From the IMG/VR virus record IMGVR_UViG_2698536610_000001: a stretch of 47,772 nt of DNA; one strand, given 5' to 3'. Of the stretch, positions 1,641 through 4,112 are shown in pieces. The stretch's first letter is position 1. The number at the start of each line of letters is the position of its first letter. The stretch is from a virus (lineage: Duplodnaviria > Heunggongvirae > Uroviricota > Caudoviricetes). The notes under the pieces are model-generated. The model did no database searches and had not been told where the DNA came from. It saw nothing but the letters and a program-made list of their open reading frames with translations. Made by a program: the position numbers and the translations under genes.

Positions 1641-4112
1641 TTAAGAATCAGCCTGACTCGGGATCAGTTTTTGCCAGATAGCTGAAACGTATTTTGCCTG
1701 GTAACGGGCGTCATCAAGTGCATTATGGCGCTCACCTTCGAATGGAATAGCCGTTCTGGCATCGAAGTCTATGGCTTTCCCCAGCTCAACGATTGTGCGT
1801 ACATCGCGATCGTTGTAGTAACGCCACGGGCAGGGGATTCCCTGCCGTTCGTATGAACGGCGCAAAATCGTGTTGTCGAAGTTGGCTCCATTTCCCCAGA
1901 CATGAACAAAAAATTCACCGGAGTTTTCGTCGATAAATTCCCGCAATTGTAACAGTGCATCATCTAACGGGATTTCATCGGTCATAATGGCAGATTGCGC
2001 TTCGCGTGATTGTTTAAGCCACCATTTAATGGTGTCACGATCAATGACTCCGCCAGCAGTTTCCAGATCGATAGTCTTACTAAATTCCGGTCCCATATCT
2101 CCGGTTTGCGGATCGAAAAATATTGCACCTATTGAGATAATCGGGGCATCGGGATTTTTTCCCATGGTTTCAAGGTCGATCATCAGATGAATCCCCGCTC
2201 TGCTGGTGGATGTGAGATTATGATGACCGTTCGTCTTAATTAAGGGATCTGACGCCTCGCCAGTTTCACTATCGCTGGCATGATGCTGATTGCCGCCAGT
2301 GTTCTCCTTGTGCTGATGCGCAGTGCCTTCCATTTCCTCCGGATCATTTTCCTGAACTTCAGGCTGATTCTCTCCATCGAATATTTCCTGGTATGTTGCG
2401 TCACCCATCACCGCACCACAATCAGGGCAGTTGCCGCCACCGCTATGACCGCAGGCGGTGCAGATCTTTTCCGGTTCCTGTTGCACTACTGGTTCAGGTT
2501 GTTTCGTTTCTGGCTCGTTTTGTTGCGTATTTGGGCTGTTTTGTTCCGCTTTCTGGTCGTTCTGTTCCGTTTCTTGCTGGTTCTGGTTCACAGAATCGAG
2601 GGTCTGGATCCCCTTAACCCATTTCGGATCATTCGGGTCGCTAATCCCTTCAACAAATTCACCACGTGATACTGCAAGCAGTTCATCGGCGTCAGGCTGG
2701 CTGATATTGGCTGCCTGCATAATTTTGTTTACTTCGTCAGAGGTAACTTTTACTGACCCTGGTTGTGCGGTCGTGTCAGATGCACCAGTATTTTGTTGTG
2801 AACCTGAGTATGTACCGTTTTTGCGGGCGAAATATTCTTCTTTCGTGATTTCAGTAGCCCCAGCAGACAGCGCCTTATCCAGACCAGAAAGTTTGTTTGC
2901 GCGACCGTATTTTTCGCCATCCTTGTCGGTGAAGAGGAAGTAGAACGGCCCCTCACGTTCTACAGATGGTTCGACTTCCACTTTGCATTCGGTTTTTTCG
3001 TTGTCTGGAATTGCCGTTTCCACTGCATCAGTTTCTGGTACTGGCGACGAGAGAGTATCAGTTGCGCTCTGATTTGTTCCTTCATCTTCAAACACGCCCT
3101 TTGTAGTCAGGTATTCAGTAATGTATTTGTTCAGTGCCACAGGGTCTTTGTGAATGTCGATCGGACGTTCACGGACAAGGCCAAAAATAGTCTGGCGGTC
3201 GTAGCGAAGGGCATCAGGCTGTTTGCGCATTGATGCCGAGATACGCTTCCAGTCTTCGCGGTCGTTGTCGATAACTTCTTTTTTTGCCCAGCGATGGATG
3301 CTGCCGTCAATGTTTCCGGCATCCACATCACCAGGCCAGAGAGCGTAGGCCAGTTCGTCATCCAGTGTTTTCCATGTCTGCTTGTATTCGCGATGAATGG
3401 CAGCAATGACCGGGTTGATTTTTCCTGTTGAATTTTCAGTGTGCTGTTGATTGGCTCTGGCGCGGGCGAGATCAACAACAGACGTGTATTTTCCGGCTTC
3501 CTTGCGTTCACCTTCGCGACGTTTTTTCCAGATGCGCATCTCTGCCTGAATTTCGGGCCATTTGGCACCAGGCTTACATTTATGCTTAACCCACCCGATG
3601 GCATGCAGCTTAAGCTCCGGATACATAGCGTTAACTTCTGGCATTTTCATCAACGCTTCAACGATATGGCCGTCGAATGTTGCCATGTCTTCCTGCAACA
3701 ATTCCTGTGCGCTAATCACCATATCAACAGTGATGTTTTCACATGTGTGGAACTTAACCATGACAGCGTTCTGTACTTCAGGGGCCAGCTTGTCAAAAGT
3801 GACGTTCATCGGATCGGATTCAGTCTCAACCGGAACAAAAGAAGCAGACGCCTCATCCCAGCGGTTTTCCTGCATATATTCAGCATCCCAGGAATCGAGG
3901 GCAGGGCGGGGTATACCGGGTTTATCCTCGCAAACAAGAAATTTATAAGCGCAGTCCTGAGCAGCCGGATAATGTTCCAGGAATTGCCAGTGAAATTTTG
4001 CTCGAGCACGGCGTTCGTCGCCAGCTTCAATGGCTGTGGCTACAGCCACAGCGCCTTCTTCCCTTGTTGCCAGTTCGTCAGGAATAGCGGCGCAAATAAA
4101 GACTTTACTCAT
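1641..4112 (-). CDS. Prophage exonuclease with C-terminal DnaQ-like DEDDh 3'-5' exonuclease domain and internal Cys4 zinc ribbon
   Basis: 823-aa ORF; C-terminal motifs MIDLETMG (Exo I), [10 protein letters not shown] (Exo II), [10 protein letters not shown] (Exo III); CTACGH…CPDCG zinc-ribbon motif; acidic low-complexity linker. Often annotated as exodeoxyribonuclease VIII in databases, but the domain seen here is DnaQ-like. Confidence 0.8.
   Translation of the reverse strand: [823 protein letters not shown]

Follow-up and report, generated by a model that had tools for sequence, protein, structure and literature searches.

Which function can be assigned to a very large exonuclease-like protein that is encoded in the recombination slot of a lambdoid prophage and has no annealase as partner? 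This question is raised by the gene at 1641..4112 (minus strand; 823 amino acids, aa) of the viral record IMGVR_UViG_2698536610_000001 (Caudoviricetes), the 47,772 nucleotides of which are referred to as the window in the following. Judged from its sequence, the gene is an intact ydfE within an apparently complete Qin/mEp460-type lambdoid prophage, and its product is an already known, annotated and very common prophage protein, not a new one. Its most likely function, to which a probability of about one half is assigned, would be that of an early lytic-cycle 3′-end DNA exonuclease tethered to a RecE-family scaffold, rather than that of a SynExo recombinase. A preliminary description of the locus had placed a large protein in the early-left recombination slot, with DnaQ-like DEDDh motifs where RecE has its PD-(D/E)XK nuclease, a zinc ribbon, an acidic linker and no annealase next to it, and all of these features are borne out below. 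As possible functions it had named a recombination exonuclease, an anti-defence factor and a replication accessory. Beyond the reach of that description were the identity with K-12 ydfE, the existing annotation and commonness of the protein, the zinc ribbon and adjoining block shared with RecE and the published DnaQ-type genes near int.

DEDDh head and RecE-type scaffold of YdfE

The C-terminal part of YdfE (aa 642–813) matches PF16473 (Rv2179c-like 3′-5′ exoribonuclease domain) over model positions 2–177 of 177 (E=9.6e-67; 224.5 bits vs. a cutoff of 27), with RNase_T as a weak second Pfam match. The complete catalytic set could be located, i.e., D646 and E648 in the Exo I motif DxE (IDLET), D746 in Exo II (NFDNT) as well as H796 and D801 in the Exo III motif Hx4D (HNALDD), and these five residues are invariant in the aligned relatives (two alignments). 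Structure prediction, proposed as a check in the preliminary description, agrees with this assignment: in the AlphaFold2 model of aa 455–823, only the head is reasonably confident (confidence score pLDDT 70–89) and adopts an RNase H-like DEDDh fold, the zinc ribbon and a conserved peptide being of low confidence. Foldseek relates the head to RNase T (2.5e-7), DexA of phage T4 (exonuclease A, 8KEL; 1e-6), Orn/REXO2, ERI1 and Cap18, all with a probability of 1.00. DexA is also the nearest solved sequence (8KEL, E=2.7e-7) and the only one found in PDB sequence searches with the whole protein and with the head; a DexA-like protein of phage Moon is assigned to PF16473 as well. The head is thus predicted to possess metal-dependent 3′-5′ exonuclease activity, and DNA is its probable substrate, considering that its nearest characterised relative, DexA, is a DNA exonuclease.

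The nuclease domain of K-12 RecE comprises residues 564–866, the remainder of the protein being “of unknown function” (PMC11611040). No canonical RecE nuclease domain was found in YdfE by Pfam, NCBIfam or tblastn: there is no Pfam match to the PD-(D/E)XK domain PF12684, PF16473 occupying the C-terminus instead, and tblastn with the K-12 RecE nuclease domain retrieved nothing better than E=0.3 from the window. The NCBIfam model of exodeoxyribonuclease VIII (NF007259) reaches 269.2 bits vs. a cutoff of 1269 and covers aa 246–626 only (model positions 271–603). Similarly, phmmer with RecE aa 595–866 matched other family members and not the representative P0006, which is 93 % identical to the window protein. 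At the opposite end, the N-terminal domain PF06630 (Exonuc_VIII) was not found in the window protein at E<=1, and is present in relatives such as P0204, P0236 and the protein of phage 813R8.

Nevertheless, a large central part is common to both proteins. BLASTP aligns aa 262–625 of YdfE with aa 278–591 of K-12 RecE at 38 % identity overall and ~80 % over aa 474–625, and blastn of the gene against the Rac region of K-12 yields a single common segment (2239–2688), which stops exactly where the two head types begin.

The part in front of the head is modular. AlphaFold2 predicts folded modules at aa 1–205, 245–340 and 388–432 (pLDDT >90 in the model of aa 1–450) with disordered linkers between them. 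Foldseek searches with these scaffold modules gave no neighbour in PDB and BFVD at E<=1e-3; one scaffold subdomain was matched by a few tiny uncharacterised phage proteins, which is uninformative. Where the preliminary description had seen one acidic linker, three acidic stretches are present, all predicted to be disordered by AlphaFold2; two are listed in Table 1 and the third comprises aa 505–548 (10 D+E vs. 2 K+R). The zinc ribbon (C551-T-A-C554 and C562-P-D-C565) is likewise real in sequence and also occurs in RecE (CNACGQTGGDNCPDC), several family members being devoid of it. A peptide at aa 483–504 is kept in nearly all RecE/YdfE members, irrespective of N-terminal module, zinc ribbon and type of head, and has the appearance of a short motif for interaction with a partner.

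The breadth of the family was assessed by HMMER with aa 1–640 against 1.84 billion representative proteins, which yielded 247 relatives at E<=0.001, and the modules were mapped by phmmer on the long ones; a first homology search had returned near-identical E. coli proteins only, the diversity coming from the search of representatives. The members of the family begin with YdfE_N or with RecE_N (PF06630) and differ in their set of middle modules; at the C-terminus, YdfE_N or RecE_N scaffolds carry a DEDDh head, a PD-(D/E)XK head or none recognisable. Relatives of the last kind, with C-termini that have no Pfam match, probably correspond to the “RecE-2” proteins (Zheng et al., PMC12315714). The same DEDDh head (98 % aa identical) resides in P0128 (locus L006) on a Rac-type RecE_N scaffold, the N-terminus of which is unrelated to that of the window protein. 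The alignments indicate that the RecE/YdfE family is a mosaic, the members of which exchange N-terminal modules and C-terminal heads, with disordered acidic linkers connecting the folded modules.

A further arrangement was observed in P0204 (703 aa), where a RecT domain (aa 528–678, E=1e-42) follows in the same frame upon a RecE N-terminus of the K-12 type (PF06630, E=4e-98). This protein has no nuclease head and represents a natural recE-recT deletion fusion.

The type of head goes along with the gene content downstream. In K-12 Rac, recT directly follows recE. The genes with a DEDDh head, in contrast, lie directly before xis/int without RecT in the window, in loci L006 (Rac-like context with KilR, YdaE and SieB), L007, L008/L009 (DicB-type contexts) and L010, and in phage 813R8; the 190-aa stand-alone “DnaQ-like exonuclease” gp34 of phage LLS occupies the same slot, again without RecT. 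Altogether, RecT is downstream in none of seven DEDDh contexts (the window and six independent relatives). Among the three genes with a PD-(D/E)XK head that were examined, RecT is next in L011 and L013, and the RecT slot of L012 contains a 271-aa gene. The latter (6565–7380 of L012, plus strand, after the PD-(D/E)XK-head RecE) has no Pfam match and no BLASTP similarity to RecT, and may represent an unrecognised annealase type.

The absence of an adjacent annealase, as claimed in the preliminary description, is confirmed by the neighbours of ydfE, i.e., xis/int downstream and ydfD/dicB upstream, and the check for one elsewhere in the prophage revealed none that had been missed among the open reading frames (ORFs) scanned and with the tblastn queries used. 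Pfam and PHROGs assigned none of most other mid-sized early and late ORFs (not every ORF was scanned) to the RecT, Bet, Erf or Sak families; those scanned encode O-like replication, DUF977, DUF968/HNH, Q, lysis, terminase and moron functions. In tblastn, three RecT proteins and the protein in the RecT slot of L012 found nothing below E=2.8 in the whole window, Red-beta, Erf and Sak4 not being among the queries. A hidden annealase among the unannotated ORFs was rejected after these Pfam, PHROGs and tblastn searches. Taken together, the arrangements suggest that on homologous scaffolds the combination of PD-(D/E)XK head and recT is exchanged cleanly for the DEDDh head alone. From this exchange it may be argued that the action of the long N-terminal part of RecE depends neither on RecT nor on the polarity of resection; this part has been unexplained since the 1990s and is relevant to linear-linear recombineering.

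The identity of the gene follows from comparison with E. coli chromosomes. Many of them carry, at rspB/ydfJ, a prophage to which the first 6.3 kb of the window are 96–98 % identical, and at least 80 % of this part is present in 1652 complete genomes. The ydfE gene of K-12 (b1577), annotated as a pseudogene, is cut by IS2E such that its first 256 codons remain, the translation of which is 97 % identical to aa 1–256 of the window protein. Phage mEp460_ev081 annotates a protein 98 % identical to that of the window, and whole-length relatives at 90–98 % identity occur in thousands of genomes. In syntenic genomes the RefSeq label is “3′-5′ exonuclease” or “exonuclease” (e.g., WP_000048464, the syntenic 823-aa protein), and precomputed Pfam hits to PF27430 (YdfE_N) and PF27432 (YdfE_C), two families that cover N-terminal parts of the protein, exist for the cluster representatives P0001–P0120, which are 90–95 % identical to the window protein.

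DNA of the DEDDh head was found in 4069 of 5426 complete E. coli genomes (~75 %), at 8105 places and up to seven times per genome. The K-12-type recE head is present in 1736 complete E. coli genomes, less than half this count; of the two head types, E. coli thus has the DEDDh one more often. Codon comparison with relatives gave ratios of nonsynonymous to synonymous substitution rates (dN/dS) of 0.10–0.15 for the DEDDh head and 0.08–0.19 for the folded middle and small modules (middle module, 0.11–0.19 vs. L007 and L008; small module at aa 388–432, 0.08 vs. L007). The linkers, including that at aa 576–639, range from 0.58 to 0.85. These low ratios reveal purifying selection on the head and the folded modules and, together with the presence of the head in so many complete genomes, lead to the conclusion that the gene is functional. 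A protein part so widespread and so well conserved contrasts with a function that is only predicted.

Proposed function and alternative explanations

A two-component recombinase of the SynExo type is effectively excluded for YdfE because the predicted polarity of its head is the wrong one and no annealase was found with the ORFs and queries tried. The following course of events is proposed instead. Upon loss of DicA repression, YdfE would be produced from the last gene of the dicB operon; this gene starts 93 bp past ydfD on the same strand, and a crude scan between ydfD and this start detected no promoter on the coding strand (the total count was below chance). Using two-metal catalysis, the DEDDh head would then shorten DNA at its free 3′ ends, and the scaffold, partly common to RecE, would probably bring the head to DNA ends or to a host factor. 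Since no Rec module was found in this phage and Chi sites are plentiful, it presumably relies on host RecBCD and RecA. In this situation, trimming of 3′ tails may make ends usable by RecBCD, or may tidy intermediates of replication or recombination. That 3′ exonucleases of E. coli are able to blunt 3′ tails for loading of RecBCD is established.

The genomic background of this proposal is provided by the survey of Zheng, Casjens, Davidson, Amundsen and Smith (Genome Res 2025, PMC12315714), according to which 22 % of the enterobacterial lambdoid phages have no Rec module and are mostly rich in Chi. Phage LLS, Chi-rich and without a Rec module, grows better with RecBCD (PMC12315714). The window harbours nine Chi sites vs. 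1.46 expected by shuffling; eight of them, five in plus orientation, are located at 13.0–19.9 kb in the Q-lysis region, with which the virion DNA ends on its right side. This clustering at the right end resembles that of phage LLS (PMC12315714). Neither an annealase nor a canonical Rec-module gene was found in the window, anti-RecBCD and SSB (single-stranded DNA-binding protein) genes not having been searched for specifically. The prophage fits the lambdoid class characterised by “no Rec module, high Chi”.

As to the individual sites, five copies of Chi (GCTGGTGG) are found within 650 bp (13042–13691; three plus, two minus) inside ydfU (DUF968/HNHc_6, 13001–14050), and three further ones at 19380–19905 in the lysis region.

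Several points weigh against this assignment. The domain PF16473 is named for an exoribonuclease, and Orn, REXO2 and RNase T among the structural neighbours act on RNA or very short oligonucleotides, for which reason the substrate of YdfE could also be RNA or oligonucleotides. A targeting role of the scaffold is a guess, since its modules have no detectable structural relatives, and expression solely from the DicA-controlled promoter is deduced from gene order and the crude promoter scan. The literature searched did not contain a biochemical or genetic study of intact YdfE or a close relative. Some lambdoid phages, often ones that also possess a canonical Rec module, sporadically carry genes for DnaQ-type nucleases “very near int”, which the authors exclude from the Rec module genes (PMC12315714); the link to RecBCD is weakened by this coexistence and by their not being counted as recombination genes. 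Moreover, 3′-5′ exonucleases usually inhibit rather than promote recombination (PMC12315714).

One may speculate further that the RecE/YdfE scaffold is a general device for delivering nucleases to DNA ends, its DEDDh version being a helper of the RecBCD-Chi pathway that trims 3′ tails for loading of RecBCD. This extension is rather improbable at present. If true, the “no Rec module, high Chi” strategy would gain the component that it has lacked on the side of the phage, and the enigmatic N-terminal region of RecE (600 aa) would become accessible to functional study for the first time.

The homology of the head to DexA may alternatively point to a prophage defence nuclease of the DexA/EcD (“HREX”) type, which would degrade the modified (5-hydroxymethylcytosine, 5hmC, type) DNA of superinfecting T-even phages and thereby protect the lysogen. 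The DexA homologue EcD of E. coli is reported to degrade T4 DNA and not unmodified DNA, and to protect cells from T4 (Nucleic Acids Res 2025, PMC12153337). The homologues listed there (WP_000048412, WP_000048416, WP_000048437 and others) are numerically adjacent to WP_000048464, which suggests, and does not prove, that the YdfE family was included. The shared Pfam family, the intact catalytic residues and the extreme commonness of ydfE in E. coli would agree with such a role. However, the position of DexA W152, implicated in 5hmC recognition (PMC12153337), is Tyr765 in YdfE (RYYNDRD vs. KFWNQRD), that of D169 not being reliably alignable. The tryptophan is kept in LLS gp34 and P0246. With its D90-equivalent at residue 78, EcD seems to be short and to stand alone, unlike an 823-aa fusion, and ydfE ends a repressor-controlled early-left operon without a promoter-like site of its own, unlike typical defence morons expressed in lysogens. 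In PADLOC-DB 2.0, the sole match was a generic CRISPR-associated DEDDh model (E=1.4e-5), with no cas genes nearby. In addition, native T4 DNA is glucosylated, and the published specificity of EcD needs independent confirmation. A defence function is, on balance, unlikely.

It is also doubtful that YdfE serves as a counter-defence or signal-clearing enzyme, the head of which would degrade small nucleic acids with a 3′-OH (retron msDNA, linear oligonucleotide signals or nanoRNAs). This idea draws on the exoribonuclease that founded PF16473, on the oligoribonucleases Orn and REXO2 and the CBASS-associated exonuclease Cap18 among the structural neighbours, and on the clustering of anti-host genes (dicB, dicF, kil-like) in the early operon; a modular scaffold with further anti-host functions, like a “polyvalent” early protein, would fit the freely exchanged modules. 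Yet the nearest characterised sequence, DexA, is a DNA exonuclease, and the head replaces a DNA-end resection nuclease in the slot of homologous scaffolds, which argues for DNA ends and not small signals as target. Known anti-defence families were not matched by the N-terminal modules in profile and Foldseek searches.

A true RecE-type recombination exonuclease, the annealase of which is encoded elsewhere or unrecognised, is largely refuted and regarded as very improbable. Its position in the recombination slot of the early-left operon, the central block and zinc ribbon common to RecE, and the label exodeoxyribonuclease VIII given to the window protein in some databases are outweighed by the lack of a PD-(D/E)XK domain, a predicted polarity opposite to that of RecE and lambda Exo, and the failure to find either an annealase in the 47.8-kb window (with the ORFs and queries tried) or RecT next to DEDDh heads. 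Automatic “exonuclease VIII” labels should be viewed with caution, and prophages of this kind not be counted as recombination-proficient. Finally, a decaying, functionless remnant, as the IS2E-interrupted K-12 pseudogene might suggest, is refuted for the window copy by a frame that is intact here and in the great majority of the close cluster representatives listed, by dN/dS of ~0.1 on head and folded modules with all catalytic residues kept, and by the near-identical protein of the deposited phage genome mEp460_ev081.

Genetic context and further features of the prophage

The features of YdfE and its neighbourhood are compiled in Table 1. The order int, xis, ydfE, ydfD, dicB, DicF, ydfC, ydfB, ydfA, dicA, with dicC on the opposite strand, is that of the dicB operon in the cryptic prophage Qin of K-12.

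Table 1 Coordinates of ydfE, the parts of its product and neighbouring genes in the window
Feature	Position	Strand	Remarks
Intact ydfE, complete exonuclease gene	1641..4112	-	ATG start, 823 aa; last gene of early-left (dicB) operon before xis/int
N-terminal module, YdfE_N type	3393..4112	-	aa 1–240; predicted alpha/beta and helical fold; part surviving in K-12 ydfE
Helical middle module	3093..3380	-	aa 245–340; distantly common to RecE aa 278–345 (BLASTP vs. K-12 RecE)
Acidic disordered linker	2967..3077	-	aa 346–382; pLDDT <50; 9 D+E vs. 2 K+R
Small beta-hairpin and helix module (GPFYFLF...RANK...)	2817..2951	-	aa 388–432; pLDDT 94–96; in part of the family only (phmmer map)
DNA block shared with Rac recE	2239..2688	-	YdfE aa 475–625 vs. 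RecE aa 455–591; 76 % nucleotide identity
Conserved peptide	2601..2666	-	aa 483–504; alignment of family members
Zinc ribbon CxxC-x7-CxxC	2418..2462	-	C551, C554, C562, C565; low AlphaFold2 confidence
Acidic, His/Gln-rich disordered linker before the head	2196..2387	-	aa 576–639; pLDDT ~27–34; 14 D+E vs. 3 K+R
Predicted DEDDh 3′-5′ exonuclease head (PF16473)	1674..2189	-	aa 642–813; catalytic D646, E648, D746, H796, D801
Tyrosine integrase (int)	2..1297	-	prophage end adjoining rspB
xis (excisionase)	1317..1568	-	directly downstream of ydfE; same slot as recT in Rac
ydfD (DUF1482 lysis protein)	4206..4397	-	directly upstream of ydfE, same operon
dicB	4394-4582		next after ydfD, going upstream from ydfE
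DicF small RNA	4757..4808	-	between ydfC and dicB, dicB operon; Rfam RF00039, 76.7 bits vs. gathering score 48
dicA, CI-like repressor controlling the dicB operon	5819..6226	-	

Outside this region, a cassette at 8781–11573 (plus strand) lies in a low-GC stretch (~8000–12000) and is absent from the otherwise syntenic prophage L003. Its GC content is 0.34–0.39 vs. ~0.46–0.55 elsewhere, and it encodes a 198-aa protein with the CTD10 domain of ABC-three-component (ABC-3C) systems as well as a 574-aa DUF2326 protein matching the PADLOC candidate defence family PDC-M68B (E=2.8e-41). Situated downstream of the replication genes, the cassette probably represents a defence moron. A sok antitoxin RNA (11850–12024, plus strand; Rfam, 115 bits) adjoins a hok-type locus, and an IS009 RNA (44517–44715, plus strand; Rfam, 212 bits) is found close to the end of the prophage with the tail-fibre genes. 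The Q antiterminator gene is closely followed by genes for a Blc-like lipocalin (14601–15125, minus strand) and a 2-thiouracil desulfurase/DUF1722 protein (15318–16277, plus strand), which look like cargo and not like phage functions. The lysis genes and that of the small terminase subunit flank an oppositely oriented ORF for a 230-aa protein (20206–20898, minus strand); this ORF has no Pfam match and is assigned only to PHROG 13652 (function unknown).

Comparison with known systems

The founder of PF16473, Rv2179c of Mycobacterium tuberculosis, is a cellular stand-alone exoribonuclease. It has the Pfam family and the DEDDh chemistry in common with the head of YdfE and is too distant to be retrieved by pairwise PDB sequence search at E<=10. 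T4 DexA and EcD likewise combine PF16473 with the DEDDh set, and DexA superimposes in Foldseek with a TM score of 0.62 on the target. Both are, however, stand-alone proteins of ~200–230 aa, with extra loops in DexA, whereas the head forms the C-terminus of an 823-aa protein here. The DexA-like protein of phage Moon is only 28 % identical to this head.

A closer counterpart is gp34 of phage LLS, 58 % identical to the head over the full length and likewise encoded in the slot before xis/int of a Chi-rich phage without Rec module. It differs by being a stand-alone protein, the head of YdfE being fused to a 640-aa scaffold of the YdfE/RecE type. Neither the fusion nor the exchange of RecE heads is described by Zheng et al. 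2025 (PMC12315714). The new points of the present analysis are modest and comprise the precise head-swap boundary, the absence of RecT beside DEDDh heads in all contexts examined, the prevalence, the purifying selection and a scaffold without structural relatives.

Rac RecE resembles YdfE in its early-left operon position, in the layout as beads on linkers and in the homologous part (aa 262–625 of YdfE) including conserved peptide and zinc ribbon; the N-terminal region of RecE is likewise “of unknown function” (PMC11611040). The two differ in the head (PD-(D/E)XK, 5′-3′, in RecE vs. DEDDh, predicted 3′-5′, in YdfE), in the N-terminus (PF06630 vs. YdfE_N) and in the presence of recT downstream of recE only. 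The closest known system is YdfE of K-12 Qin (b1577), located at the same rspB/ydfJ site and in the same operon order, with a truncated copy in K-12 vs. the full-length one of the window.

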